Positions 43,930 to 58,184 of a DNA stretch of 64,000 nt are shown one piece after another; within the stretch, counting starts at the first letter, position 1, and every line of letters starts with the position of its first letter. This stretch comes from Escherichia phage kaaroe: the sequence record MN850574.1. One strand, 5' to 3'. The position numbers and the translations under genes are program-made. The notes beneath the pieces were generated by a model. It made no database searches. It had not been told where the DNA came from and saw nothing but the letters and a program-made list of their open reading frames with translations.

Positions 43930-44236
43930 ACAAGTTGATAATATCGCACTTCGTGAAGCACTAAAGAAAATGTTTTCGGTCGGTACTCACTCTTTGCAGT
44001 TTACTAAGAAAGATGGTACTGTCCGTGAGATGATCGCCACGCGAGATCCGGCACTGATGCCTTTCGAAACATACGAAAAGTGGTTAGTTCCTAATGTTGA
44101 AAAACCGCGTAAAGAATCAGAAACATCTTTGCCAGTATATGAAATTGCAGTTGAAGGTTTCCGTAGTTTTGGGCTTGATAGTCTGATTAATGTAGACGGG
44201 CTGACTCCAGCGCAGATCGTCGAAATTTATAAATAA
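43922..44236 (+). CDS. hypothetical protein (104 aa)
   Basis: Internal ATG of track ORF; overlaps cd stop. Confidence 0.5.
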   Translation: MTEQVDNIALREALKKMFSVGTHSLQFTKKDGTVREMIATRDPALMPFETYEKWLVPNVEKPRKESETSLPVYEIAVEGFRSFGLDSLINVDGLTPAQIVEIYK

Positions 44237-44277
44237 TTCATCATTAAACTGTATTGATTTGAAGAGGTAATAAAATT

Positions 44278-44601
44278 ATGACCGTTAAAACTCCTAAAGC
44301 ACTTGGTGACTATGTGATCATTGAAGCTAAAGCAGAAAGCGCAGGGACAGAAGTAAAAAGCTCTATGGGGATCATTATTGAGCAAAAGCGCACTATGGGC
44401 GAGATTCCGCTGGTAGGTAAGATTATTGATATCGGTGAAACGGTAGATAAAGAATTGCTGGGTAAAACTGTTTTACTGCCACATGGCAAGATGAATAAAG
44501 TTCCTCATCCAGACGTTATTAACGGCGTTAAGAAGGAAGAAGAGATCGACCTGAAATGGACTGTAACGCACAAACAGAATATTGTGGTAGTTTACGGTTA
44601 A
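44278..44601 (+). CDS. 31: GroES-like co-chaperonin for capsid assembly
   Basis: 107 aa; GroES-like (LGDYVIIEA..., mobile-loop-like region); between cd and ligase as in T4. Confidence 0.75.
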   Translation: MTVKTPKALGDYVIIEAKAESAGTEVKSSMGIIIEQKRTMGEIPLVGKIIDIGETVDKELLGKTVLLPHGKMNKVPHPDVINGVKKEEEIDLKWTVTHKQNIVVVYG

Positions 44602-44612
44602 TGATTTTAAAC

Positions 44613-44639
44613 GGCGGGAAATAATCCCGCCTATATTTT
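44613..44639 (+). terminator. intrinsic terminator
   Basis: GGCGGGA / TCCCGCC stem followed by TATATTTT. Confidence 0.6.
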
Positions 44640-44684
44640 GACTATATGATTTTGTAAGTTATTGATTATTAAGGAAATTTTATT

Positions 44685-44849
44685 ATGAAAACTATGAATG
44701 TAAACATCCACGAAATCCATACCGAAGTATTCACCGAAGAAGACCAGTTTGGTGTATGGGTAAACCCTCATTCGATTACTATCGATATTCCTAATGACGA
44801 TTATGATCCGTTCTCTCTGATTAGCGAGATTAGTTTCAATGACTTCTGA
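44685..44849 (+). CDS. hypothetical small acidic protein (54 aa)
   Basis: MKTMNVNIHEIHTEVFTEEDQF...; AAGGAAA SD; 3' end overlaps next start. Confidence 0.4.
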   Translation: MKTMNVNIHEIHTEVFTEEDQFGVWVNPHSITIDIPNDDYDPFSLISEISFNDF

Positions 44850-45318
44850 AATTGATATCTATGCGGGTGGACCTTATCCATCGGGTGAATTGAGTAATTT
44901 CAATAAAAGACCATTCCGTCTATTTGGTTGCGATATTAACAGCACAGAAGGATTTTTACAGGGGCTAAGATTTAAGAACCCTCAGAGACAAAGAGAAATC
45001 TTTTTGATGCACGGTGGCAAAGCAAAAAGAACCGGAAGAACTGAAAAGATTGAGAATCACATGTTATATTTTCAGGGTCGCCAGATTCATCGAATGAGTG
45101 AGCATTATTACAGACTGGTACATCTGGCATTTGTTACGATGGCACGGAATAACCCAGAATTTTGTAAAGCATTACTCTCTACCGGAAATAAGAAATTACG
45201 TCATAGCATAGGTGGAACTGATCCGTTAAAGACTATATTGACTGAATCGGAATTTTGTAGTATCCTCAATGATATTCGTGAACGTTTAACAAAACGAGGT
45301 GAAAATGTCAATTCTTAA
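44839..45318 (+). CDS. NADAR-like (YbiA/DUF1768 family) protein
   Basis: 159 aa; SNF...PF...G....S.E...Q..RF..........AK.TGR pattern. Confidence 0.55.
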   Translation: MTSEIDIYAGGPYPSGELSNFNKRPFRLFGCDINSTEGFLQGLRFKNPQRQREIFLMHGGKAKRTGRTEKIENHMLYFQGRQIHRMSEHYYRLVHLAFVTMARNNPEFCKALLSTGNKKLRHSIGGTDPLKTILTESEFCSILNDIRERLTKRGENVNS

Positions 45319-46801
45319 TATCATTAATCAGCTTGCAGCAACAGACAAAACATCGCTGAAAGAAAAGATTCTGAAAGAATCCGCGAGCAATGAAACGCTG
45401 AAAGAATGCTTTTATCTGGCATATTGCAAACAGGTTACGTTTGGCGTAAAGAAATACGATAAACCGTCTCGCTATTCGTCTGTATTGTCTTTATCCGGTG
45501 CATTACAGGTCTTTAAAAATAAACTTGCCACGCGTCAAGTAACTGGTAATGCAGCATTACAGCTAGTTACCGATACTCTGACTTGCTTGTCAGAAAATGA
45601 TGCTAAAGTTGCAATGATGGTCCTGAATCGTGATCTGGAATGTGGTTGTTCCGCTACTACTGCAAACAAGGTATGGAAGAAACTGATCCCTCAGCAACCG
45701 TGCCACCTTGCATCGTCATGTTCTGATAAGACTATTGCTAATATCAAGTATCCGGCGTATGCACAACTTAAAAGCGATGGCGCTCGTGGTATGGCTGATA
45801 TTGACGGGGAAACATTAGCAATCTATACCCGCTCAGGTAATACCTATCAAGGGCTTGATGATTTGTTTGCGGTTTTAGAGCGTCTACGAGGCCGTGGAAT
45901 TGTTCTAGATGGCGAATTGGTATATATGCCTACCCTTTCGCAAACACCAGCGCAGAACTTCGTTGAAAGCGTTTATGATGGTACTCTGTCATGGATATTT
46001 GAAGAAGAGGAAATGCCATTAACGCCAGTAGCGGAAGCAGTGAAAGAATCCGTTGTTGCAGATCGTCAGACCGGAAATGGTATCCTCAACAAATCACTTA
46101 AAGGAACTATTCCAAAAGAAGAAGCCCAATGTATTGTTTACACTGTCTGGGATGTTATCGACCGTGATGTGTATTACGGAAACGAGAAAGCAACGAAGCA
46201 ATATAAAGATCGATTCGAAGAACTAAAACAGATTGTTGAAGAACTTAACGATCCTCGTGTTCAGATCATCGAAAACACTGTAGTTAACAATATCGATGAA
46301 GCTCGCGAAGTATATCATCGTTATGTCAACATGGGCTTAGAAGGTATTATCCTTAAAAATTTACATGGTGTATTTGAAGATCGCCGTAGTAAAGATCAGG
46401 TTAAATTTAAAGAAGTGATTGACTTCGACGCGGAAATTGTTGATGTATATCCGCATAGTAAAGACCCCAATAAGGTAGGCGGTTTTACTGTCCGTAGTGC
46501 GTGCGGACGAATGATGACTAACACCGGATCGGGATTAACCGACACTACAACCGAAAAAGGTGATGATGGTATCGAACGTGTAATTCCGTTCGATCGTCGA
46601 AATGAACTCGACCGAGAAATGTTATGGGCTGACCGTCATAACCTGATTGGAAAAGTCATTGAGATGACATGCAACGGGTATATCCGCAGCAAATCACGTA
46701 AAGAAGATGAACCGGAGTTCTCTTTATTTCTCCCAATCATCAAACGTATTCGCTACGACAAGACCACTGCAAATACAGTAAAAGAGGTATTCGATGTGTG
46801 A
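45305..46801 (+). CDS. 30: ATP-dependent DNA ligase
   Basis: ATG after GAGGTG SD; motif I KSDGAR; strong similarity to T4 ligase (LTGNAA, GLEGIILKN, KFKEVIDFD, DPNKVGGF). Confidence 0.92.
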   Translation: MSILNIINQLAATDKTSLKEKILKESASNETLKECFYLAYCKQVTFGVKKYDKPSRYSSVLSLSGALQVFKNKLATRQVTGNAALQLVTDTLTCLSENDAKVAMMVLNRDLECGCSATTANKVWKKLIPQQPCHLASSCSDKTIANIKYPAYAQLKSDGARGMADIDGETLAIYTRSGNTYQGLDDLFAVLERLRGRGIVLDGELVYMPTLSQTPAQNFVESVYDGTLSWIFEEEEMPLTPVAEAVKESVVADRQTGNGILNKSLKGTIPKEEAQCIVYTVWDVIDRDVYYGNEKATKQYKDRFEELKQIVEELNDPRVQIIENTVVNNIDEAREVYHRYVNMGLEGIILKNLHGVFEDRRSKDQVKFKEVIDFDAEIVDVYPHSKDPNKVGGFTVRSACGRMMTNTGSGLTDTTTEKGDDGIERVIPFDRRNELDREMLWADRHNLIGKVIEMTCNGYIRSKSRKEDEPEFSLFLPIIKRIRYDKTTANTVKEVFDV

Positions 46802-47270
46802 TAATGAAGGGGCGAAAGCCCCTAAACCTAAAAAATTGTCAAAGAAAGAGCAACGCCAGATCCTGAAAATGAAATATGGTGGACGTTGTGCCTATTGTGG
46901 CGAGGAACTAGGGGATCGCTGGCACGCGGACCACATCAAACCAGTATTGCGACGCTCAAAGGTAGTCTATGATGAAAATGGACGAATTGCCCGTAATGAT
47001 GATGGATCATGGAAATATAAGGTTGTAGGAATGCATAAACCGGAGCATGATATACTTGATAACATGAATCCGGCGTGTGTGCAATGCAATCTTTATAAAA
47101 GCTGTATGGGCTTAGAATACTGGCGTAAGTGTATACGCGAGAACTTCCAGAAGTACATTCAGCGCAATATGGGATTGCGAGCGGCTAAACGCTTTGGCTT
47201 GCTGTCAATCCACGACCAGCCAGTAGAATTTTATTTCGAAAAGTACGATCGCGAGCATCAAGAAAAATAA
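46794..47270 (+). CDS. HNH endonuclease
   Basis: 158 aa; CAYCG...HADHIKP...N...CVQCN; start overlaps ligase stop. Confidence 0.75.
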   Translation: MCDNEGAKAPKPKKLSKKEQRQILKMKYGGRCAYCGEELGDRWHADHIKPVLRRSKVVYDENGRIARNDDGSWKYKVVGMHKPEHDILDNMNPACVQCNLYKSCMGLEYWRKCIRENFQKYIQRNMGLRAAKRFGLLSIHDQPVEFYFEKYDREHQEK

Positions 47271-47283
47271 TTCAAAAAGTTGT

Positions 47284-47312
47284 TGACAGGGGATCGGTGA
47301 TCCCCTATACTA
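47284..47312 (+). promoter_or_regulatory. PeSL-like early promoter cassette
   Basis: TTGACA, GGGGATCGGTGATCCCC hairpin in spacer, TATACT; conserved leader. Confidence 0.6.
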
Positions 47313-47356
47313 CACACATCAAAACGAAACACACTTTCTTAAACGGAGAATCAAAA

Positions 47357-47668
47357 ATGAAATACATCGTAACGCTGCCAATGATTGACTTCGACGGAAC
47401 CATGAACACCCAGAAGACCATGAGCGCGGAGAACCAACTGAAAAACGCTACCCTGATTCGTGAAGTTCGCAAGGCACTGGCAAAAGAATTTAACACCAAA
47501 ATTCATTCTGTAACTGGCGAACGTTTCGCGGATCATCTTGATATCAACATCAAACCAGTGCGCAACGGTGTTATCTCTGTAACAACCAGCCGCCCACATG
47601 CTGACGCTGATAATCTGACCGCTCGCGCAGAAGATGTAATTATGACCGTTATCATGGAAAAACTTTAA
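47357..47668 (+). CDS. hypothetical protein (103 aa); paralog of 50675-50962
   Basis: ATG after GGAGAATCAAAA; shared VRKALAKEFN motif. Confidence 0.5.
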   Translation: MKYIVTLPMIDFDGTMNTQKTMSAENQLKNATLIREVRKALAKEFNTKIHSVTGERFADHLDINIKPVRNGVISVTTSRPHADADNLTARAEDVIMTVIMEKL

Positions 47669-47676
47669 AAAAGTTG

Positions 47677-47705
47677 TTGACAGGGGATCACCGATCCCCT
47701 ATACT
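47677..47705 (+). promoter_or_regulatory. PeSL-like early promoter cassette (hairpin in flipped orientation)
   Basis: TTGACA, GGGGATCACCGATCCCC, TATACT; conserved leader. Confidence 0.6.
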
Positions 47706-47739
47706 ACACACATACCGAAACGAACTAGGAGAATCAATT

Positions 47740-47919
47740 ATGAACTTCAACGAAATCATCGCTAAAATCCGCTACAACGAAGAAACCATTGAACTGATGC
47801 AAAACAATATCACCAATGGCTATATGATTGCAGCGTCACAAGAAATCATTGATTTGACGGTAGCAGAAAATGCTCAGTTGAAACATCAACTTTCAACGGC
47901 TGGCGTGATTGTTATGTAA
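47740..47919 (+). CDS. hypothetical protein (59 aa)
   Basis: ATG after AGGAGAATCAA. Confidence 0.5.
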   Translation: MNFNEIIAKIRYNEETIELMQNNITNGYMIAASQEIIDLTVAENAQLKHQLSTAGVIVM

Positions 47920-47936
47920 TAAAGAGAGGTGACTAA

Positions 47937-48239
47937 ATGGCAAAAGTTCAGGTAGGTGAGGTCTTCAAAATGGAAGACCACACCGTGGAAGAGATGAAAG
48001 GCGCAGTATTGAAAGTAATTAATTCAATGTGGCGTAGTGTGCTTTACATCAACTTTATCGACGGTGATGTGTGGTGGGCTAGCGATAGCGATAAATGGGA
48101 TATCAAGTTCTACAAAGGTCATACTCACTGGTTAGGATCAGAGGATGTTGTAGAAGTTCTTGCGGTTGATGTTATGCCAGGAGAGATCGAGAATCTTAGC
48201 GGAACAGCAAAAGAAGCATTGACACGCCATTTTGCGTAA
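47937..48239 (+). CDS. hypothetical protein (100 aa), HxHW-family paralog
   Basis: ORF track; GHTHWLGSEDVVEVLAVDV. Confidence 0.5.
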   Translation: MAKVQVGEVFKMEDHTVEEMKGAVLKVINSMWRSVLYINFIDGDVWWASDSDKWDIKFYKGHTHWLGSEDVVEVLAVDVMPGEIENLSGTAKEALTRHFA

Positions 48240-48295
48240 TGTAGTATAACAATAATCGGGAGGGTAATACTCTCCCACAAATTGAGGATAATATT

Positions 48296-48487
48296 ATGTG
48301 TGGTCTTAAAATGGTTGCTGAATATAAGCGAACTGGTAATGTTATGATGTATCGACGCAATACCAACGAAGAATGGAAACCTTCAAACCGCATTAAATCC
48401 ATCCAGACGTTTATGAATAACATAAAAGAAAACCTTTTCGTTAAGCGTGCTGGTGTTGGACATTGGGAAGTTTACGAAGCTGTATAA
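48296..48487 (+). CDS. hypothetical basic protein (63 aa)
   Basis: ORF track; GAGGATAATATTATG. Confidence 0.5.
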   Translation: MCGLKMVAEYKRTGNVMMYRRNTNEEWKPSNRIKSIQTFMNNIKENLFVKRAGVGHWEVYEAV

Positions 48488-48500
48488 TTTTGAGGAAAAT

Positions 48501-48797
48501 ACTATGGAACATACTAATTTGTTTGTAGCCGAACCTTTCGTTGAAGGCAATAAAAATCTGGCTAATACCGTTATTCTTTATGAAGATTGGATCTTTTACA
48601 TCGACGAGCATTTAGATGTATTTTGTCGCACAGATAAAAGTGACCAATTTCCAATTGAAAAAAATCGAACATCAAATCATTGGTACGGCGGGAATGACGA
48701 AACCGACCTAGCTATTGTTCTAGAATCAGGCGTAGAATCTGAACATGCCAATGAAGTGGCAGACAAATTTATGAAATACGCATATAAAGCATTATAA
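48501..48797 (+). CDS. hypothetical acidic protein (98 aa)
   Basis: Internal ATG of track ORF after GAGGAAAA SD. Confidence 0.5.
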   Translation, partial: TMEHTNLFVAEPFVEGNKNLANTVILYEDWIFYIDEHLDVFCRTDKSDQFPIEKNRTSNHWYGGNDETDLAIVLESGVESEHANEVADKFMKYAYKAL

Positions 48798-48802
48798 AGT
48801 TG

Positions 48803-48831
48803 TTGACAGGGGATCGGTGATCCCCTATAAT
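48803..48831 (+). promoter_or_regulatory. PeSL-like early promoter cassette
   Basis: TTGACA, GGGGATCGGTGATCCCC, TATAAT; conserved leader. Confidence 0.6.
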
Positions 48832-48863
48832 GCACACATACCAACGAGATAGGAGAATCAAAA

Positions 48864-49031
48864 ATGTTCCAGACTAAAGCAGAATGCGAAGCATACATTG
48901 TAGCAAACCACGGTGAAGACTACCTGAAATTCGATATCGTAGTAGCACAGAAGATCACCGGAATGGTTGCAAAATATCTGGGTGTTAAAGAAGGTTACTA
49001 TCCGAGCAACGCACCGGAAATCAACAAATAA
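48864..49031 (+). CDS. hypothetical protein (55 aa); near-identical copy at 52144-52311
   Basis: MFQTKAECEAYIVANHGEDYLKFDIVVAQK...; below track cutoff. Confidence 0.5.
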   Translation: MFQTKAECEAYIVANHGEDYLKFDIVVAQKITGMVAKYLGVKEGYYPSNAPEINK

Positions 49032-49034
49032 TAG

Positions 49035-49068
49035 TTGACAATGATTAAAGGGAGTAGTAAGATACTCA
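49035..49068 (+). promoter_or_regulatory. PeSL-like early promoter cassette (degenerate palindrome)
   Basis: TTGACA ... GGGAGTAGTAAGATACTCACA; conserved leader. Confidence 0.5.
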
Positions 49069-49095
49069 CATCAAGACAACAAACGGAGAATCAAA

Positions 49096-49275
49096 ATGAA
49101 AGCTATCGAAGTTCAGAAGTACATGGAACTCATCATTGAAGGTAAAGCACATACAGTATTGACTACCCACGTAGGATATGATAAAAATGTGCATATGCTG
49201 GTAGACAATATCGGCTGGATGAAGTTTAACCCTAACGAGAACGTACAAGCTCAAGAAATGACCATCCCTTTCTAA
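49096..49275 (+). CDS. hypothetical protein (59 aa)
   Basis: MKAIEVQKYMELIIEGKAHTV...; GGAGAATCAAA SD; below track cutoff. Confidence 0.45.
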   Translation: MKAIEVQKYMELIIEGKAHTVLTTHVGYDKNVHMLVDNIGWMKFNPNENVQAQEMTIPF

Positions 49276-49287
49276 GAGGAATATATT

Positions 49288-49566
49288 ATGATGCGAATTA
49301 CTGCAACGCTGGATAAGACACACAAAGAAAGATTTTTCGGTATGATCTTAAAAACGCCGATTTTCGATAATTACCTTTATGTTGACTATGAAGGTCACAT
49401 TAGCTATAAATGTAAAAATGATATTCGTGATTCCTTTGGTGATAAATCACAAGCTGATATTCATGACCACTGGTGGAACCATGACGAACCTTTACGAGTT
49501 ATCGCAGTTGATGTAAAAACAACAAAAGAAGCTGATAAGGTAGTGAATGATTATGAGCAAATTTAA
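49288..49566 (+). CDS. hypothetical protein (92 aa), HxHW-family paralog
   Basis: ORF track; HDHWWNHDEPLRVIAVDV. Confidence 0.5.
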   Translation: MMRITATLDKTHKERFFGMILKTPIFDNYLYVDYEGHISYKCKNDIRDSFGDKSQADIHDHWWNHDEPLRVIAVDVKTTKEADKVVNDYEQI

Positions 49567-49810
49567 AGAATACAAAGCATATCAACAGATCCTGCGAGTA
49601 TACGCACCAGAGTTCGCCGAAAAGATGATGGAAGATGCATCAAAATGCCCGTCCTTTTCTGGAAACAAAAACCATTATTCTACTCGTATTGTATCATGGA
49701 AAGAAACATGTTACACTCAACAGTGGATAAACGTTTTCTCAAAAACAATTGGTTGGAATGGTGTTAATTATGGGTATTCAGAGTCAATTCAAAGATTATC
49801 GAGTGTATAA
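49553..49810 (+). CDS. hypothetical protein (~85 aa), tandem paralog 1
   Basis: ORF track; MSKFKEYKAYQQILRVYAPEFAEKMMEDASKCPSF. Confidence 0.45.
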   Translation: MSKFKEYKAYQQILRVYAPEFAEKMMEDASKCPSFSGNKNHYSTRIVSWKETCYTQQWINVFSKTIGWNGVNYGYSESIQRLSSV

Positions 49811-49988
49811 AGAAATCTGTGCTGTATTTGATGAGAAAACAGCAGATAAAATGATGAAAGAAGCGTCACAATGTTCATCTTTTGTTGATAACAAAGATTT
49901 AAGAGTAAATGAGATCGTGTGCTGGAGCGACACGAAACATGAAATTGTATGGCGTACCGTGTACTATAGCCGCGACCGAGGATTATAA
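49770..49988 (+). CDS. hypothetical protein (72 aa), tandem paralog 2
   Basis: Internal ATG of track ORF; MGIQSQFKDYRVYKEICAVFDEKTADKMMKEASQCSSF. Confidence 0.45.
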   Translation: MGIQSQFKDYRVYKEICAVFDEKTADKMMKEASQCSSFVDNKDLRVNEIVCWSDTKHEIVWRTVYYSRDRGL

Positions 49989-49989
49989 A

Positions 49990-50310
49990 ATGAAATTAAC
50001 TAAAAAGATTTTCCCAGAATTGCGTAACTGTCTGTTACTGGTTACTGAATATAAACCTTATACGATCTATTTGTACGTTGATGAAAATCTGAAAATCCGT
50101 TACTATGATTATACGTCTCCAGTGATGAAATCATTTGCTCACTCGATCGCAAATAACTGTATGAATCACAATCATTGGGTATCAGAAACGGATGACGATG
50201 CGTCAGAAGTTGTAGTGGTTGCATGGAATCTATCACCAGCGGAAGCAGATCAAGCACGCATTAAGCATTATGCGAAAAACAATTGGTTTGACCTTATAAA
50301 TGAGGACTAA
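49990..50310 (+). CDS. hypothetical protein (106 aa), HxHW-family paralog
   Basis: Internal ATG of track ORF; HNHWVSETDDDASEVVVVAWN. Confidence 0.5.
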   Translation: MKLTKKIFPELRNCLLLVTEYKPYTIYLYVDENLKIRYYDYTSPVMKSFAHSIANNCMNHNHWVSETDDDASEVVVVAWNLSPAEADQARIKHYAKNNWFDLINED

Positions 50311-50314
50311 TATT

Positions 50315-50593
50315 ATGTTCAAAGTAGGTGATAAGTTTATTCTTAGTCGTGATATTCTCCCTAATCTGAAAGGTTGTATCATCAATCCTAGTAAAAATTC
50401 ATGGTTTTATCTGTTTATCGATGATGATCTAAATGTACGCGCCGAATATAAAGAAGGTCTTCGTACTGGTCTTGGTTTCTTTCACGATCATGACCATAGC
50501 CATTGGCTAAACGGTGGATTCGAAGCAACGGTGATAGCGGTTGATGTGGATTACACAAACATCATAGAAAAATATCAAAAAATTATTTTATAA
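50315..50593 (+). CDS. hypothetical protein (92 aa), HxHW-family paralog
   Basis: ATG after GAGGACTAATATT; HDHDHSHWLNGGFEATVIAVDV. Confidence 0.5.
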   Translation: MFKVGDKFILSRDILPNLKGCIINPSKNSWFYLFIDDDLNVRAEYKEGLRTGLGFFHDHDHSHWLNGGFEATVIAVDVDYTNIIEKYQKIIL

Positions 50594-50599
50594 AAAGTG

Positions 50600-50634
50600 T
50601 TGACATAAGATCGGGTGTATAGCATAATACACCC
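50600..50634 (+). promoter_or_regulatory. PeSL-like early promoter cassette
   Basis: TTGACA; GGGTGTATAGCATAATACACCC palindrome with CATAAT; conserved leader. Confidence 0.6.
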
Positions 50635-50674
50635 ATCGAAACGAGATACACTTTCTAACTAGGAGAATCAAATT

Positions 50675-50962
50675 ATGGCATACATTACTATCACTCTGAA
50701 AGTTAACAAATTTGCTCACGCTGCACACGAAACCGATAATGCAATCCGTAACAACAAGTTCGCACGTCTGGTACGCGATGCAGTAGCTAAAGAGTTCAAC
50801 TTCAAATTTGCAGATGGTAAAGTTATCACTAAATGGACTCATGACGGCGAAACTAAAGTAGAACTTGCTGACAACTTCGCAAATCAGGAATATGCACACC
50901 GTCGCATTAATGAAATCATCAGCGATGAACTCTACTACGGTGTACAGGAAGGACTGTTTTAA
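50675..50962 (+). CDS. hypothetical protein (95 aa); paralog of 47357-47668
   Basis: ORF track; LVRDAVAKEFNFK. Confidence 0.5.
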   Translation: MAYITITLKVNKFAHAAHETDNAIRNNKFARLVRDAVAKEFNFKFADGKVITKWTHDGETKVELADNFANQEYAHRRINEIISDELYYGVQEGLF

Positions 50963-50966
50963 TATA

Positions 50967-50987
50967 CGGGGCGTTAAGCCCCCTTTT
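50967..50987 (+). terminator. intrinsic terminator
   Basis: GGGGC-GTTAA-GCCCC followed by CTTTTC. Confidence 0.5.
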
Positions 50988-51011
50988 CATCCAACTATTG
51001 AGGATAATACT

Positions 51012-51320
51012 ATGAAAGATAATATCTTTGAATTTACCCGCGAAAATCTCCCAATGTTCCGAAAGTCTCTGCTTAAACTAGAGAACAGCAATTACGATGT
51101 ATATTTTTACATCACCGAAGATCTAGAGATCCTTTACGCTGATTACCCAGGTCCGATCCGTACCTTCGAAGAAGCATCGCAGTATAAAAATGTTCACGGT
51201 CATGAGCACTGGTTACGAGAAAACCCAGGTCGCAAGAAAGCACGCGTTAAAGTGATTGCGATTGACGTAACACCAGCATACGCCGACCGGATTGCACTGA
51301 ATGATTATTTGTCTAAATGA
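51012..51320 (+). CDS. hypothetical protein (102 aa), HxHW-family paralog
   Basis: ATG after GAGGATAATACT; HGHEHWLRENPGRKKARVKVIAIDV. Confidence 0.5.
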   Translation: MKDNIFEFTRENLPMFRKSLLKLENSNYDVYFYITEDLEILYADYPGPIRTFEEASQYKNVHGHEHWLRENPGRKKARVKVIAIDVTPAYADRIALNDYLSK

Positions 51321-51327
51321 TTTTATT

Positions 51328-51353
51328 AGCCGACCTTAGCGTCGGCTTTTTTA
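51328..51353 (+). terminator. intrinsic terminator
   Basis: AGCCGAC / GTCGGCT stem followed by TTTTTTATT. Confidence 0.65.
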
Positions 51354-51376
51354 TTGCATAAAATTAAAAAAAAGAA

Positions 51377-51410
51377 TTGACACCAGATCACGCCTATAGC
51401 ATAATACACC
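51377..51410 (+). promoter_or_regulatory. PeSL-like early promoter cassette
   Basis: TTGACA ... CATAATACACCC; conserved leader. Confidence 0.55.
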
Positions 51411-51445
51411 CATCGAAACGAGATACCACTTAGGAGAATCAAACA

Positions 51446-51715
51446 ATGGCACTGACTAAAACCACTACCAACTTTGCAAAACGTCACGGCTTCGACATTG
51501 AAATCAATAGCTTTAACGATTACACTCTTCTGTGTGTATATGAAATCGAAAATGATTGCGAGTGGATGTTCAGCTATCGCGTAAACGAAGACGGATCTTT
51601 CACTTGGAACGGAAATATCTATCTTGCACAGGAAGTAAAAGAAGAACTTCCGGCGAATATCAAAGATGAGAAACATTTACGTCAAGTTTTAAAATTTATT
51701 TCTGAAAATATCTAA
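51446..51715 (+). CDS. hypothetical protein (89 aa)
   Basis: ORF track; GGAGAATCAAAC SD. Confidence 0.5.
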   Translation: MALTKTTTNFAKRHGFDIEINSFNDYTLLCVYEIENDCEWMFSYRVNEDGSFTWNGNIYLAQEVKEELPANIKDEKHLRQVLKFISENI

Positions 51716-51723
51716 AAAAGTTG

Positions 51724-51757
51724 TTGACACCAAAGTAAGAACATAGCATAATACACC
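51724..51757 (+). promoter_or_regulatory. PeSL-like early promoter cassette
   Basis: TTGACA ... CATAATACACCC; conserved leader. Confidence 0.55.
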
Positions 51758-51785
51758 CATACCGAAACGAACTGGAGAATCAAAA

Positions 51786-52067
51786 ATGAAATTCATCAAA
51801 GCAACCGAAATCCTGAAAAACAAAGAAGCATACATCGGAAACATCGTTGGTATGAACATTCGCGGCGCTGGTAGCCAGTGGACCAAACTGGTTGATGTTA
51901 AAGCTAAAGGCGATAAAATTGAGTTCACTGTAAAAATGCTTACTCATAACGCACATATGGGTATCAAGACAAAAACGATGGCAGCAGATAAAAGCATTAA
52001 CTATCAGGGTCTGGGTGATTGGCTGAACTGGTGCAAAATGCACAATATCGAAACTAATCACGAATAA
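51786..52067 (+). CDS. hypothetical protein (93 aa)
   Basis: ORF track; GGAGAATCAAAA SD. Confidence 0.5.
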   Translation: MKFIKATEILKNKEAYIGNIVGMNIRGAGSQWTKLVDVKAKGDKIEFTVKMLTHNAHMGIKTKTMAADKSINYQGLGDWLNWCKMHNIETNHE

Positions 52068-52081
52068 TTTTAAAAAAGTTG

Positions 52082-52110
52082 TTGACGGGGATCGGGAGAT
52101 CCCCTATAAT
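52082..52110 (+). promoter_or_regulatory. PeSL-like early promoter cassette
   Basis: TTGACG, GGGGATCGGGAGATCCCC, TATAAT; conserved leader. Confidence 0.6.
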
Positions 52111-52143
52111 ACACACATAACGAAACGAAATAGGAGAATCAAA

Positions 52144-52311
52144 ATGTTCGAGACTAAAGCAGCATGTGAAGCATATATCATTGAAACCCACGGCGAAGAT
52201 TATCTGAAATTTGACATTGTAGTAGCACAGAAGATTGTAGGGATGGTTGCAAAATATCTGGGTGTTAAAGAAGGTTACTATCCGAGCAACGCACCAGAAA
52301 TTAACAAATAA
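52144..52311 (+). CDS. hypothetical protein (55 aa); near-identical copy of 48864-49031
   Basis: MFETKAACEAYIIETHGEDYLKFDIVVAQK...; below track cutoff. Confidence 0.5.
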   Translation: MFETKAACEAYIIETHGEDYLKFDIVVAQKIVGMVAKYLGVKEGYYPSNAPEINK

Positions 52312-52325
52312 TTTTATAAAAAGTA

Positions 52326-52354
52326 TTGACAGGGGAGGATAACTCCCCTACAAT
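52326..52354 (+). promoter_or_regulatory. PeSL-like early promoter cassette
   Basis: TTGACA, GGGGAG-GATAA-CTCCCC, TACAAT; conserved leader. Confidence 0.6.
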
Positions 52355-52394
52355 ACAACCATCAAGACGAGATACCACTTAGGAGAATCAAACA

Positions 52395-52646
52395 ATGGCT
52401 AACATCGAAACCGCAAAGAAAATCGCTAAAGACCTGAACGTTAAAGGCTTCCGTAAACTGAAATTACAGCGTGTACGCTACACCATCGGCAAACAGTGCT
52501 CTTTCATGAGCGAAGAAGTTGCTAACAGCCTCATTGATAACCTGATTGCGGCTGGCTGGGAAGTTGCGGATCTGAAAACTTGCCGCGAACTGGCTAACAA
52601 AGGTCTTTTAGATTCTGTTACTATCAAACCAATGGGGGCAGCGTGA
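52395..52646 (+). CDS. hypothetical protein (83 aa); first gene of the coupled operon
   Basis: ORF track; GGAGAATCAAAC SD. Confidence 0.5.
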   Translation: MANIETAKKIAKDLNVKGFRKLKLQRVRYTIGKQCSFMSEEVANSLIDNLIAAGWEVADLKTCRELANKGLLDSVTIKPMGAA

Positions 52647-52888
52647 AAAGAAAATTAATTAAACGCAATAAGGAATTTCTTAATAACTGCATTAAGGCCG
52701 CTAATGGTTGGCCTTTGTGCCTCTTCCTTTATGATTGGTATTCTAAACAATCAGTTGAGGAAACACGACACTATAAGAAGATCAGAAAAGAATCATATAC
52801 AAAACAAGGCCGCATTAACGGACTTTACTTAATGTGGCACGGCAAAGAACCTTCTAAAATCTGCGTTGGATTAAAGGGGCGTATATGA
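52643..52888 (+). CDS. hypothetical basic protein (81 aa)
   Basis: ORF track; start overlaps previous stop. Confidence 0.5.
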   Translation: MKRKLIKRNKEFLNNCIKAANGWPLCLFLYDWYSKQSVEETRHYKKIRKESYTKQGRINGLYLMWHGKEPSKICVGLKGRI

Positions 52889-53601
52889 AACAAAAATTAA
52901 TATTCTGTAACTTTGACGGATCGGGGATAATGGGGCTAGAATGGGCTAAAGCAGGTCATAAGGTGATCTGCTTTAATGCTGACGATGGCGACCACGGCAC
53001 ATACAAAAAGTATAATACCAGATTTGAACACCCAAACATTACCTATGTAAACACATGGATTGATTTGAACTGGCTAGAAAGAGCAATGGACCTTGAATGG
53101 GGGAAACCGGATATTATCTTTGCATTCCCACCGTGCACCAATTTAGCTGTTAGTGGCGCTGCACACTTTGAACGAAAGAAACGAGAACAAGGACCATTGA
53201 TTCAAGTTCATGATGTAAGGGCAGCTAAAATAACCGCTTATTTGGGTGAATGGCTAGGAGTTCCCTACATGATAGAGAATCCTGTAAGCGTTATCTCTAG
53301 CATGTGGCGTAAGCCTGATTACATGTTCCACCCGTGGGAATATGGCGGTTATTTGCCGGAAGATGATAAACATCCTACTTTTCCTGAGTATATCGCCGCC
53401 CGTGATATGTACCCGAAAAAGACTTGCTTATGGACCGGACAAGGCTTTATAATGCCAGAAAAGAAACCGTTGCAGATTAATAAAGGGTACAGTAAACAGC
53501 ATTCTAAGCTAGGCGGGAAAGGAACGAAAACAAAGACTATCAGGTCACTTACCCCGCGAGGATTCGCAAAGGCAGTATTTGAAGCAAATAAGGATCTATG
53601 A
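52885..53601 (+). CDS. short DNA C5-cytosine methyltransferase-like protein (no obvious target-recognition domain)
   Basis: 238 aa; motif I-like FDGSGIMG, motif IV-like FPPCTNLAVSGA, motif VI-like IENPVSV. Confidence 0.55.
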   Translation: MKQKLIFCNFDGSGIMGLEWAKAGHKVICFNADDGDHGTYKKYNTRFEHPNITYVNTWIDLNWLERAMDLEWGKPDIIFAFPPCTNLAVSGAAHFERKKREQGPLIQVHDVRAAKITAYLGEWLGVPYMIENPVSVISSMWRKPDYMFHPWEYGGYLPEDDKHPTFPEYIAARDMYPKKTCLWTGQGFIMPEKKPLQINKGYSKQHSKLGGKGTKTKTIRSLTPRGFAKAVFEANKDL

Positions 53602-53936
53602 TGAGATTGTTTAAGTATTCGCTAACGTCAAATTACGATAAACAAGGTCATTGCATCCGTTGCCCTGATTGTCATAGCCATAACATCGAAAGCAAGATCA
53701 CCGATCATATTGATGGACTTTGGTCGCCAGCAAGTGAAATAGAATACTATTGCGCTGATTGTGGAATTGTAGTAGCATATTGGGCATACGGATCATATGA
53801 TCCATACTTCCAGATGGGAGAACGTTCAATCCCTGCGCTTATCTGGAGAATTAAGAACAATATCCGCTATTCATGGGATGAGTTCTTAAAAGATATTGAT
53901 TTACGTGATGATCCATTCAGGAGAACTATATTATGA
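53598..53936 (+). CDS. zinc-finger protein (112 aa)
   Basis: CIRCPDCHSH ... CADCG cysteine clusters; start overlaps previous stop. Confidence 0.5.
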   Translation: MMRLFKYSLTSNYDKQGHCIRCPDCHSHNIESKITDHIDGLWSPASEIEYYCADCGIVVAYWAYGSYDPYFQMGERSIPALIWRIKNNIRYSWDEFLKDIDLRDDPFRRTIL

Positions 53937-54112
53937 TAACACCACAACTACACGGTAAAGAGATTTGCGATCTTACTTGGGAAGAGTTGGTCATGTATCG
54001 CGACACCTACAAATGGTTTGAATCCATGAAAGAATTTGTAGCAGCAGTACGAGAAGAAATGAGCATTCGCCAGTATGCGGACGCATATATTGAAAAGGTA
54101 AGCACACTATGA
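53933..54112 (+). CDS. hypothetical protein (59 aa)
   Basis: MITPQLHGKEICDLTWEELVMYRDTYKWF...; overlaps neighbours on both sides; below track cutoff. Confidence 0.45.
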   Translation: MITPQLHGKEICDLTWEELVMYRDTYKWFESMKEFVAAVREEMSIRQYADAYIEKVSTL

Positions 54113-54627
54113 ACCGTTTAACGCCTAAACGCCGTTACTATACCAATACTAAAAACTTTGTCATCTCTGTTTATGAGGCGTGGTTAGAAGATGGCTTTAT
54201 CAACATGAACCCAGATTATCAGCGTCCTTTGGTATGGGACACCGAAAACAAACGTATGTTTATCGAAAACCTGATTAATGATTTTCCGGTTGGTGCTATC
54301 GCAATGGCTAAGATTGATGATGGCTCTCGCTATGAGATCGAAATCGTGGACGGTAAACAGCGTTTAAACGCAATATTCTCCTTCATGAAGGATGAGTTTA
54401 GCATTGCTGGTAATGATGATTCTATGTTGTATTACAGTGATTTTACGCCAGCAGAAAAGCGACGTTTCCGAAATCTCGGACTACCCGCGATCATGATGGA
54501 AGAGAGCACACGAGAAGACCGATTAGAGTATTTCTACAAAACAAACTTTTTCGGTGTGCCTCAATCGGAAGAACATCGCCAGCATGTGATTGCCCTATTG
54601 CAAGATGAGCAATTAAAAAATAACTAA
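54109..54627 (+). CDS. DUF262-like (ParB/Srx-fold, GmrSD/DndB N-terminal-type) domain protein
   Basis: 172 aa; PDYQRPLVWD...FPVGAIAMA...YEIEIVDGKQRLNAIFSF (DGQQR-type motif). Confidence 0.55.
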   Translation: MNRLTPKRRYYTNTKNFVISVYEAWLEDGFINMNPDYQRPLVWDTENKRMFIENLINDFPVGAIAMAKIDDGSRYEIEIVDGKQRLNAIFSFMKDEFSIAGNDDSMLYYSDFTPAEKRRFRNLGLPAIMMEESTREDRLEYFYKTNFFGVPQSEEHRQHVIALLQDEQLKNN

Positions 54628-54635
54628 AAAAGTTG

Positions 54636-54664
54636 TTGACAGGGGATCATCGATCCCCTATAAT
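54636..54664 (+). promoter_or_regulatory. PeSL-like early promoter cassette
   Basis: TTGACA, GGGGATCATCGATCCCC, TATAAT; conserved leader. Confidence 0.6.
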
Positions 54665-54698
54665 ACACACATACCGAAACGAACTAGGAGAATCAAAC

Positions 54699-54878
54699 AT
54701 GAAACACTTAACCATCGAATCGGCAATCATCGCAATCGCTAAAGTTCAAGCGGCTTATAATTGCACTGACATTGAAGCCATTTCAAAAATGCAAGCAGAA
54801 GCAGCAAAAGCGGGTGACGAGAAATCTTTAGATGTTCTCTGCGAAATCAAAGCAGAATTGATTTCAAAAATGTTCTAA
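54699..54878 (+). CDS. hypothetical protein (59 aa)
   Basis: Internal ATG of track ORF after AGGAGAATCAAAC. Confidence 0.5.
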   Translation: MKHLTIESAIIAIAKVQAAYNCTDIEAISKMQAEAAKAGDEKSLDVLCEIKAELISKMF

Positions 54879-54884
54879 AAGTTG

Positions 54885-54919
54885 TTGACATAACAGAGGG
54901 TGTATATCACAATACACCC
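54885..54919 (+). promoter_or_regulatory. PeSL-like early promoter cassette
   Basis: TTGACA; GGGTGTATATCACAATACACCC palindrome; conserved leader. Confidence 0.55.
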
Positions 54920-54949
54920 ATACCGAAACGAACTACTAAGGAGTATCAA

Positions 54950-55162
54950 ATGGCTAACATCGAAATCATCATTACCGACGTAACTTATGACCGCATTAAC
55001 GAAATCGGTACTGCATTACTGGAAGATGGAACAACTCGTACCATCAACTACGCAGAATACGTTGAAATGCGCGGTTGTATTAAACGAGTAGGAAAATATA
55101 TCCTGATTGAAAAAGACTATTCAGGATACACCTTAGAGCAATTGCTCGATGGTGCATTATAA
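54950..55162 (+). CDS. hypothetical protein (70 aa)
   Basis: ORF track; AAGGAGTATCAA SD. Confidence 0.5.
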   Translation: MANIEIIITDVTYDRINEIGTALLEDGTTRTINYAEYVEMRGCIKRVGKYILIEKDYSGYTLEQLLDGAL

Positions 55163-55167
55163 TAAAT

Positions 55168-55188
55168 GGGGGCGTTAAGCCCCTTTTT
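55168..55188 (+). terminator. intrinsic terminator
   Basis: GGGGGC-GTTAA-GCCCC followed by TTTTTC. Confidence 0.6.
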
Positions 55189-55229
55189 CATAAATATAGG
55201 TTTATAGGTTATCAACTAGAGGATATAAA

Positions 55230-57281
55230 ATGTTTAACTTAGAAATCGACGATCTAATGATTGAATCTTTCGAGAAATGGCTGTTGACGGAAGAGGAAGA
55301 AAACTTTGGCAGTATTGCTCCGGTACAGTGCTTAAAGCCTAAGCAGAATCCTAAACAGCTTTTTGCAGTACAGACACGCGATAAAGATGTGATTGTCCGT
55401 CTTTGTAACTTCACCAACAAAACACCTAAAATCATTCGTATGGGTGACAAGACCGCACATGTTGTACTGTGCGAAATGAACAAAAGCGGTCGTATTGTAC
55501 AGCTTAAAAATGGTCTAGGCGATAACCCGATTGCAGTTATGTCAAGTGCTTTTGATGTGGTTATGGAAACAGCCCGTAAAGCGCAATTAGACGCTGTTAT
55601 GTTCCGTTTTAACGTATCCCGCATGAAAGGTAAGACCGAACTGGTTAAGCGCGTTATAGAGCGTTTGGTGCGTCGTACACCGAAGTTTGAAGTATTCCAG
55701 CAGGAAGTAATGACCAGCAAAAAGATCGCTTTAGTTGTTGTCAAGCGTCGCGGGATGGCGATTGATAAGATTAAAGGTATTAAACTTGATGAATCCTTGT
55801 TCACTAAAGTAGAAAGTGATTTAGGTGATCGCTGGGTATCTAAGGCTACTGGTGAATCTCTGACTAAAGATGAGGCATATGCGGCTAGTCTTGTGTCAGA
55901 AGAAGAACGAAACGCGGAAGCAGAACAACGCGTAGCGGCTAAATCTCGTTTGACTAAAGAAGAAATGCTGAAAACTCAAGCGACATATAACAGCGACTAC
56001 GTGAATCATCCAGAAAAAATTAATCTTAAACCGGAAGAAGATATCACCGAAGCAGAACCTAAGAAACAGTTTAATACTCTGATTGACCGTCAAGCCTTAG
56101 AACGTTCAACCGCCCGTTCTCTGAATGACTGGACAAGTGATATTATCACTCGCTATGGTTTCATGCGTACTATTTTTGAAAGCGAAGCCGATGCAAAATA
56201 CGCAGTAAGCGAACTGGTAAAAGTTCAGGATCAATATGATCCATTGTCTGCGGAAGTTATCGCAGCCTCGGTCAAACGCTTAAAAGAAATCATGAGCGAG
56301 GAAGTATTCGAAAACAAGATCACCGCCCTGGCAATGGATCGAGTAGACCAGTCTATGCCAGCAGATGTAAAAGCTGAAATGCTGCGTAGTCATATCACCC
56401 AGATTAAAACAGATGCCCTACGTAATATTGCCTCCGGTATGTTTGAAGCAATTGCTAGCAACATGGGTGAAATGATGGCAGATATTGATCTTGATCTGCC
56501 GGGCGCGGAAGGTTTTGTGTTGAGCGAATATGCCGATGCAGCATACATCAATATGAACAACTTCCTAACCGACCGTAAGCTGGAAGAGTTTGAAGGCATC
56601 GCAGATCCAGAAGAATTGGTCAAGATGTGCGATGCACTGGATAATGCCTTCTCCAACTATGGCGTTAAACTTGATCCGGGTACTATTCTGTATCGTGGTA
56701 TGGACTTCCGGTCGCAAATGTGGGAAACTGCACGTAAGCAAAAAGCGTTTTACTTTAAAAACTATGTGAGCACTTCCCTTGCACCTAACATTTTTGGCGG
56801 CTGGAATGCAAACGTGGCTAGTGCCGTTGCTGGTGTTGATTCTATGGCTGGCTCTCGCGGTGAAGGTGGCGCTAATGTTGCTTTCTCCATTGCTGGCGCG
56901 GAAAACATCCCTGTATTGCCAGTAGGTAACAAAGCATTTGCTTACAAAGAATGCGAGATTTTACTTCCTCGCGGTGTTGTGTTATCCTTTGATACGGTAA
57001 CTCGTGCTACGGCATCGACGGATTCACAAGAAACTTATTACATCGAGGCACATATTATGAACAAAAATGAACTGGCAGCATTACAAGAATCTGGCGAGAT
57101 GATCGCGGACGGTGATGCATTCATCCGTGAAGGTGTTGTTAAACCGGCTTCTGACCTGTCTTTCTCCAGCTTCATTAGCGAAGCTAAAACCGAACGTAAG
57201 AAAGCAGATAAGGCAACTCTACGTCAGCTTATCGCTGATCTGGTATCTGTAGACGCAATGCCAGATAAATTTAAAATGTAA
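55230..57281 (+). CDS. alt: Alt-like ADP-ribosyltransferase (packaged RNA polymerase-modifying enzyme)
   Basis: 683 aa (T4 Alt is of similar length); C-terminal R-S-E triad (LYRG, YVSTSL, ECEILLPRG); between ligase and baseplate genes. Confidence 0.8.
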   Translation: MFNLEIDDLMIESFEKWLLTEEEENFGSIAPVQCLKPKQNPKQLFAVQTRDKDVIVRLCNFTNKTPKIIRMGDKTAHVVLCEMNKSGRIVQLKNGLGDNPIAVMSSAFDVVMETARKAQLDAVMFRFNVSRMKGKTELVKRVIERLVRRTPKFEVFQQEVMTSKKIALVVVKRRGMAIDKIKGIKLDESLFTKVESDLGDRWVSKATGESLTKDEAYAASLVSEEERNAEAEQRVAAKSRLTKEEMLKTQATYNSDYVNHPEKINLKPEEDITEAEPKKQFNTLIDRQALERSTARSLNDWTSDIITRYGFMRTIFESEADAKYAVSELVKVQDQYDPLSAEVIAASVKRLKEIMSEEVFENKITALAMDRVDQSMPADVKAEMLRSHITQIKTDALRNIASGMFEAIASNMGEMMADIDLDLPGAEGFVLSEYADAAYINMNNFLTDRKLEEFEGIADPEELVKMCDALDNAFSNYGVKLDPGTILYRGMDFRSQMWETARKQKAFYFKNYVSTSLAPNIFGGWNANVASAVAGVDSMAGSRGEGGANVAFSIAGAENIPVLPVGNKAFAYKECEILLPRGVVLSFDTVTRATASTDSQETYYIEAHIMNKNELAALQESGEMIADGDAFIREGVVKPASDLSFSSFISEAKTERKKADKATLRQLIADLVSVDAMPDKFKM

Positions 57282-57359: not shown

Positions 57360-58184
57360 ATGTTCAAGAAATTACAGGATTTTCGTCTTTCAGAAGAATC
57401 ACGCGAATCAATGATGGAACGTATGGATAATTACATCGAAACATATGACATTGAGGGGATTAATGGTTACATGATCACTGAGATGATCAGCGATCAGATT
57501 AACTTTGATGATTATGTGAAGGTTATCCGCTTCCTTGAGCGCGAGACACAAGATTATGGATTTGTAAAGAAAATCATTAATGTGATGTATGAAGTACACT
57601 CCGAAGACTTTGGAGATAATGTATTCAAACATTACAAACATAACAACATAACCCCAGCAGAATATAATGCAATCTGTGATTATGTGTCTGAACAATACGA
57701 ATGGGTAAATGGTGCTCTCTTAGGGGAAGAAGACATGACCGATGAGATATCAGAGATTGTTGATTTGATGGATTGTGTCATGGATAAAACCGAAAAGTTA
57801 AACGGTACTCTTTATCGAGGTCAACATCTTGACATTCAGACAATAGAGCGTATCATTGAAGATAAGGAGTTTACCTTTAAAAACTTTGTATCTACCAGCA
57901 TGACACCGATCATCTTTGGAGGATGGCTATCAAACAGCACTAGCCTTTATTGTGAGAATCGATATGAATCAATGACCGGAAAGATGCAACATTCTTGTAA
58001 TGTATCATGGGTAATTGACGTAAAAGATCATAAAGGTTTTGTTGTTGGGTCAATTGCATGGAACCCTTGCGAATGTGAAGTAATTTTACCGCGAGGGACT
58101 TGCGTCAAGGTAAACGACGTAGTAGAATCTTTCGGCGATGAGAATCGTAGACAATTTACAATTTTCGGTGAGGTGACTAAATGA
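57360..58184 (+). CDS. second ADP-ribosyltransferase (paralog of the Alt catalytic domain)
   Basis: 274 aa; LYRGQ, FKNFVSTSM, ECEVILPRG aligned with the Alt C-terminus. Confidence 0.7.
   Translation: MFKKLQDFRLSEESRESMMERMDNYIETYDIEGINGYMITEMISDQINFDDYVKVIRFLERETQDYGFVKKIINVMYEVHSEDFGDNVFKHYKHNNITPAEYNAICDYVSEQYEWVNGALLGEEDMTDEISEIVDLMDCVMDKTEKLNGTLYRGQHLDIQTIERIIEDKEFTFKNFVSTSMTPIIFGGWLSNSTSLYCENRYESMTGKMQHSCNVSWVIDVKDHKGFVVGSIAWNPCECEVILPRGTCVKVNDVVESFGDENRRQFTIFGEVTK

Follow-up and report, generated by a model that had tools for sequence, protein, structure and literature searches.

Introduction

The described counterpart of the gene studied here is gene 30.3 of phage T4, whose product was renamed AdfN (anti-DarT factor NADAR) by Johannesman et al. 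(Nat Commun 2025, PMC11825919). Genetics and biochemistry identified T4 AdfN as a DNA ADP-ribosylglycohydrolase directed against DarTG1 (PMC11825919, with support from PMC11125620 and PMC11543638). T4 and T2 no longer plaque on DarTG1 cells once adfN is deleted, and expression of AdfN rescues RB69, which is naturally frameshifted in adfN and sensitive to DarTG1 (PMC11825919). The frameshifted RB69 allele lacks the equivalent of the T4 C-terminal helix, and a truncated AdfN-T4 is less active (PMC11825919). The purified protein takes ADP-ribose off DarT1-modified DNA; the substitutions E36A and K43A impair T4 AdfN, E36A serving as the inactive control, and the thymine-modifying DarTG2 is not countered (PMC11825919). 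Full function was seen only during infection by Tevenvirinae, which suggests that a phage cofactor takes part (PMC11825919).

Hydrolysis of guanine-linked ADP-ribose by T4 gp30.3 in vitro has been reported in two further studies (PMC11125620; PMC12945103). According to the methods of the former, the T4 NADAR was expressed as "gp30.3; residues 1-208", yet T4 gp30.3 is annotated with 152 aa. As 208 aa is the length of T4 gp61.2 (AdfA), the construct figure is probably a typing error or includes tags. This discrepancy leaves the conclusion intact, since AdfN-T4 was purified independently in the 2025 paper.

NADARs fall into groups that differ in the residue at the last strand, which is His in phage NADARs of the gp30.3 type, Glu in the YbiA type and Asp in the DarT1-associated type (PMC11125620, PMC11543638). 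DarG1 proteins, such as those of E. coli C7 and G. lovleyi 8BAT, carry an N-terminal extension of the fold and the last-strand Asp, and are encoded beside DarT1 (Schuller et al., Mol Cell 2023, PMC11543638). YbiA-type proteins, represented by E. coli YbiA (2B3W), carry the last-strand Glu, have an N-glycosidase role on riboflavin intermediates and give no protection against DarT1 in vivo. AdfN-Bas32 and AdfN-Bas60, from T5-like and Vequintavirinae phages, resemble the gp30.3 type in being phage-encoded orphan NADARs that counter DarTG1. However, they belong to other NADAR clades, were acquired independently and neutralise DarT1 without phage infection.

Here we analysed a 64,000-nucleotide stretch of Escherichia phage kaaroe (MN850574.1), hereafter the window, for which a preliminary description had proposed a NADAR-like gene, and we compared its product and locus with these systems.

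Results

Gene and family assignment

The 159-aa open reading frame, running from an ATG to a TAA stop, lies exactly at the coordinates given in the preliminary description and in the slot named there, with gene 31 on one side and DNA ligase on the other (Table 1). All residues of the motif quoted in that description were also found (S19-N20-F21, P25-F26, G30, S35, E37, Q41, R44-F45, A62-K63 and T65-G66-R67), and most of them lie on columns that are conserved across gp30.3 proteins (S19, N20, F26, S35, E37, Q41, position 44 as K/R, A62, K63 and G66). Over nucleotides 44000-46000 of the window, identity to Krischvirus phages that infect E. coli, for example MIZ6, RB49 and kvi, is 98-99.7%, and the RB49 record AY343333.1 labels the equivalent frame "30.3: gp30.3 conserved hypothetical protein". 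The window comes from a Krischvirus (RB49-like) phage, and the taxonomy line places Krischvirus outside the Tevenvirinae.

Table 1. Features of the gene 30.3 locus and of the region downstream, in window coordinates.
Feature	Coordinates	Strand	Basis or remarks
Gene 31, GroES-like head-assembly co-chaperone	44278..44601	+	
Terminator-like GC-rich hairpin with T-run, just past gene 31 and upstream of the 54-aa ORF, adfN and ligase genes	44613..44631	+	Consensus scan
54-aa ORF (RB49ORF215c)	44685..44849	+	Stop overlaps adfN start by 11 nt
adfN (gene 30.3) CDS, 159-aa predicted single-domain phage NADAR (gp30.3 family)	44839..45318	+	ATG-to-TAA ORF; stop 45316-45318
Glu37 codon GAA, corresponding to catalytic E36 of T4 AdfN	44947..44949	+	Pairwise alignment, family column, YbiA profile alignment
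Arg44 codon AGA, position of T4 AdfN K43 (phosphate-coordinating Lys of NADARs)	44968..44970	+	Pairwise alignment
His122 codon CAT, marking the phage (gp30.3) NADAR subfamily	45202..45204	+	Family column, model
C-terminal alpha-helix, residues 136-157, intact	45244..45309	+	AlphaFold2 model; alignment reaches T4 C-terminus
Gene 30, ATP-dependent DNA ligase	45305..46801	+	ATG 45305 after GAGGTG, alternative GTG 45299; start overlaps adfN stop
158-aa protein with HNH endonuclease domain	46794..47270	+	Start overlaps ligase end; RB49 equivalent ORF212c
172-aa protein with GmrSD_N (DUF262) domain	54109..54627	+	Variable region between ligase and alt
Alt, 683 aa	55230..57281		PF03496 ART domain
Alt-like paralog, 274 aa, directly after Alt	57360..58184	+	PF03496, E=4e-16

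The protein matches Pfam PF08010 (Phage_30_3) with E=3.5e-37 and 127.7 bits (cutoff 36), residues 13-148 covering profile positions 2-138 of 138, and phrog_652 of PHROGs (function unknown) with E=9e-45. With tblastn, 1,509 phage records contained a homolog; judged from the organism names, the majority are T4-like phages whose hosts are Escherichia, Klebsiella, Shigella, Aeromonas, Acinetobacter and Vibrio. The number of relatives depended on the search: a word-indexed search with the single protein returned only 7 and a profile search 2,343, while an exhaustive search of a library of 1.84 billion representative proteins gave 968 clusters at 50% identity (E<=0.001). Together, these scores and counts place the frame and its motif far beyond chance. 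In the exhaustive search, the Krischvirus clade forms an isolated branch of the gp30.3 family whose next relative is 48% identical. A weak match to DltA ligase (E=7e-4 in a single-sequence PDB search; E=0.17 for the NCBIfam DltA model over the same region) had neither structural nor family support and was discarded as spurious.

The alignment with T4 gp30.3 runs over the full length, with 37% identity, 54% positives and E=2e-28. Both proteins belong to PF08010, are single-domain NADAR folds and are encoded downstream of gene 31 and upstream of DNA ligase; they also share the catalytic Glu, the subfamily His and the C-terminal helix. They differ at T4 Lys43, which corresponds to Arg44 in the window protein. 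No equivalent of T4 30.3' was found, the window gene containing no internal plus-strand ORF of at least 40 aa.

Outside the window, the best matches to the gp30.3 profile are mostly proteins of about 322 aa (P0009-P0123) in which an N-terminal gp30.3-type NADAR (residues ~15-171) is fused to a C-terminal NT5C-type 5'(3')-deoxyribonucleotidase (PF06941). The names of some point to Muribaculaceae or Prevotellaceae MAGs, and others lie on Mb-scale contigs (2.59 Mb for P0123). The "phage NADAR" subfamily therefore appears to be common in apparently cellular genomes, where a nucleotidase accompanies it. Of the 157 family representatives, 40 are extended by over 60 aa at the N-terminus and 27 at the C-terminus.

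Predicted fold

The preliminary description had called the product NADAR-like. Scored directly against the Pfam NADAR model PF08719, the protein stayed below the gathering threshold (16.8 bits against 35.1, E=0.0083), and its NCBIfam match to a NADAR anti-phage protein was likewise sub-threshold; the gp30.3 family has its own Pfam model, separate from PF08719. In contrast, a profile built from 48 single-domain gp30.3 members found E. coli YbiA (2B3W) as its sole significant PDB match (E=6.3e-4), with the family motifs LSNF and mEGfLQslK paired with FSNF and sEhyFQaqK of YbiA. An initial profile that included the fusion proteins had matched 5'(3')-deoxyribonucleotidases only, through the fused domain, and was rebuilt from single-domain members. 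By sequence, the link to NADARs is weak but real.

The predicted structure is clearly a NADAR fold. An AlphaFold2 model from a 24-sequence alignment reached a mean pLDDT of 89.2 and a pTM of 0.84, and its leading Foldseek matches among predicted viral structures were gp30.3-family phage proteins (TM 0.85-0.92), followed by dozens of annotated NADAR proteins from phages and giant viruses.

Key residues

Glu37 occupies a column that is E in 154 of the 157 family members, and the alignment of the family profile with YbiA pairs it with the Glu there. In the AlphaFold2 model, residues 119-121 form the last beta-strand, and His122 comes directly after it within KLRHSIG, which aligns with LKHSI of T4; this column is H in 153/157 members. 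The window protein lacks a Lys equivalent to T4 K43 and has Arg44 instead, in a column where 144 of the 157 members carry K and 8 carry R (about 5%). Arg is also present in relatives that are 97% and 68% identical, so that the Krischvirus lineage is fixed for R, which recurs sporadically elsewhere. This conservative substitution is the sole deviation that might set the window copy apart from that of T4. The literature treats the Lys as a functional residue and not as a criterion that defines the family. When K95R was engineered into the E. coli C7 NADAR, which is of the DarG1 type, guanine-ADP-ribose hydrolysis persisted in vitro but the rescue from DarT1 in vivo was lost (PMC11543638). Arg44 and this K95R result are the reason why our confidence in the functional assignment, although high, stops short of certainty.

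Compared with DarG1, the window protein is a bare 159-aa core with His122 and an orphan with no toxin partner, its neighbours being the 54-aa ORF and the ligase gene. It is not a DarG1 member, although it probably works like one. Unlike AdfN-Bas32 and AdfN-Bas60, it belongs to the T4-type gp30.3 clade.

Gene order and selection

The window phage and T4 share the order pseT, cd, 31.1, 31, 30.3, 30. T4 rIII, 30.9-30.4, 30.2 and 30.1 are absent from the window locus, which is hence more compact than that of T4. Searches with tblastn for T4 AdfA (61.2), 30.2 and ModB gave nothing significant within the window; these genes may lie elsewhere in the phage genome. The overlaps of adfN with the 54-aa ORF and with the ligase gene make co-transcription and translational coupling of the three probable. 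A sigma-70 promoter scan found nothing convincing directly upstream of adfN, with counts not above shuffle expectation. The number of terminator-like sites also did not exceed shuffle expectation, which makes the hairpin past gene 31 weak evidence, and its sequence is kept in a metagenomic relative, L003.

L003, whose 30.3 protein is 68% identical, has the same gene order as the window. Between the two, dN/dS of 30.3 is about 0.12, an approximate value with dS at 1.77 and near saturation, and this indicates that the sequence of gene 30.3 has been under purifying selection. The RB49 copy differs from the window copy at 3 codons, too few for an estimate of selection, and the 68% relative was used instead. 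The 54-aa ORF is conserved in position in L003, with 37% amino acid identity and dN/dS of about 0.45; it has no Pfam match and does not resemble T4 30.4. At most, it is a speculative candidate for a partner of AdfN.

Downstream of the ligase gene, the 158-aa protein with an HNH endonuclease domain (E=5e-6) is possibly a homing endonuclease. The 172-aa protein matches GmrSD_N (E=5e-20), which forms the N-terminal part of type IV restriction enzymes targeting modified DNA. Between ligase and alt, the run of small ORFs covers about 8.4 kb in the window (46801-55230) and about 9.7 kb in RB49 (locus L002, 16801-26485), so that this hyperplastic region differs in gene content between phages that are otherwise about 98% identical.

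Phage ADP-ribosyltransferases

As had been claimed, the phage encodes ADP-ribosyltransferases about 10 kb downstream, namely Alt and an Alt-like paralog, both with the PF03496 ART domain. RB49 labels the paralog "similar to C-terminal part of T4 Alt", and the 274-aa paralog outscores Alt itself on the ART model.

Discussion

The gene, its family membership, its fold, the conservation of its motif, its synteny and purifying selection were all observed here. We consider it likely that this ORF is the Krischvirus ortholog of T4 30.3/adfN and encodes a NADAR ADP-ribosylglycohydrolase that would counter DarTG1. The enzymatic activity, the guanine specificity and the anti-DarTG1 function in this phage are inferred from the T4 protein. 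The suggestion of a counter to DarT toxins gains support from the same orthology, and its target would more precisely be the guanine-modifying DarT1, not the thymine-modifying DarT2.

If so, AdfN would be made during infection from a transcription block shared with nucleotide-metabolism and ligase genes. DarT1, the toxin of host DarTG1, would attach ADP-ribose to guanine N2 of the phage DNA, and AdfN would hydrolyse the N-glycosidic bond between the two, restoring a replicable template and sparing the phage from abortive infection. The distal ribose would lie between Glu37 and His122, and the phosphate-coordinating role of the usual Lys would fall to Arg44. AdfN would thereby act as an orphan antitoxin that does not bind the toxin.

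Several observations count against this reading. The protein is 37% identical to that of T4 and carries Arg in place of Lys43, the substitution that failed in vivo in the C7 NADAR; T4 AdfN depends on Tevenvirinae infection for its full function, while Krischvirus lies outside the Tevenvirinae and several T4 neighbours of the gene are absent; and the direct Pfam NADAR score is under the gathering threshold. A literature search for RB49 or Krischvirus together with DarTG returned nothing relevant.

Within the same fold and family, the lineage-fixed Arg44 and other divergence could have retuned or weakened the enzyme, whose main substrate would then not be DarT1-modified DNA but could be RNA guanine-ADP-ribose or what some other nucleic-acid ART toxin produces, or which would be only a weak anti-DarT1 factor. 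We regard this as unlikely. Fixation of R in the Krischvirus lineage despite the predominance of K in the family is consistent with it, as are the activity without protection of C7 NADAR K95R, the marked in vivo specificity of NADARs despite their common in vitro activity (PMC11125620) and the removal of RNA guanine-ADP-ribose by all NADAR families (PMC12945103). However, Arg recurs independently in the family with Glu and His intact, which suggests a tolerated conservative swap, selection on 30.3 appears strongly purifying, and K95R was studied in another NADAR subfamily, in an engineered rather than co-evolved background. With similarly low probability, Arg44 and the missing 30.1, 30.2 and 30.4-30.9 might mark a retuned AdfN that has no need of the Tevenvirinae cofactor or acts on another substrate, such as RNA guanine-ADP-ribose or the product of a toxin other than DarT1. 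If true, such a protein would be a natural experiment on the determinants of NADAR specificity in vivo.

Degradation of low-molecular-weight ADP-ribose derivatives, such as immune signals or toxic nucleotides, instead of macromolecular adducts was proposed for most phage NADARs by comparative genomics before experiments were available (PMC9503650), and the fusion to an NT5C-type deoxyribonucleotidase in many cellular relatives hints at chemistry at the nucleotide level. This role is nevertheless very unlikely, as ADP-ribosylated DNA is a substrate of the T4 ortholog in vitro and this activity explains the phage phenotype, and no small-molecule substrate has been demonstrated for the gp30.3 subfamily. 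The earlier idea that the NADAR erases or regulates ADP-ribosylation by the phage's own enzymes draws on the presence of Alt and the Alt-like protein 10-12 kb downstream in the same window and on a survey in which T4-like NADARs are expressed early, together with ARTs (PMC9503650). It appears extremely improbable: Alt and Mod are described as protein modifiers (T4 record annotation; PMC9503650), whereas characterised NADARs cleave ADP-ribose linked to a base, guanine or cytosine; moreover, the 10-kb distance gives adfN and alt no operon linkage, and the reported phenotype of T4 lacking adfN is specific to DarTG1. Metabolic housekeeping by a YbiA-like N-glycosidase on riboflavin-pathway intermediates is close to negligible, with the YbiA type defined by a last-strand Glu where the gp30.3 family has His, and with no riboflavin context at the locus; YbiA itself also hydrolyses guanine-ADP-ribose in vitro.

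For the orthology with T4 adfN, the fold prediction, family assignment and function have already been published for the T4 protein, and the finding is in this sense already known. The window gene brings no new biology, and its main importance lies in annotation. Homologs of adfN are mostly still recorded as "hypothetical protein" (nearly all, among the matches listed of the 1,509 records), despite the proven anti-defence role of the T4 ortholog. The natural Lys-to-Arg variant provides a small handle on in vivo differences among NADARs with the same in vitro activity. Furthermore, the adfN label predicts resistance of RB49-type phages to E. coli that carry DarTG1, a point of relevance when phages are chosen for therapy cocktails.
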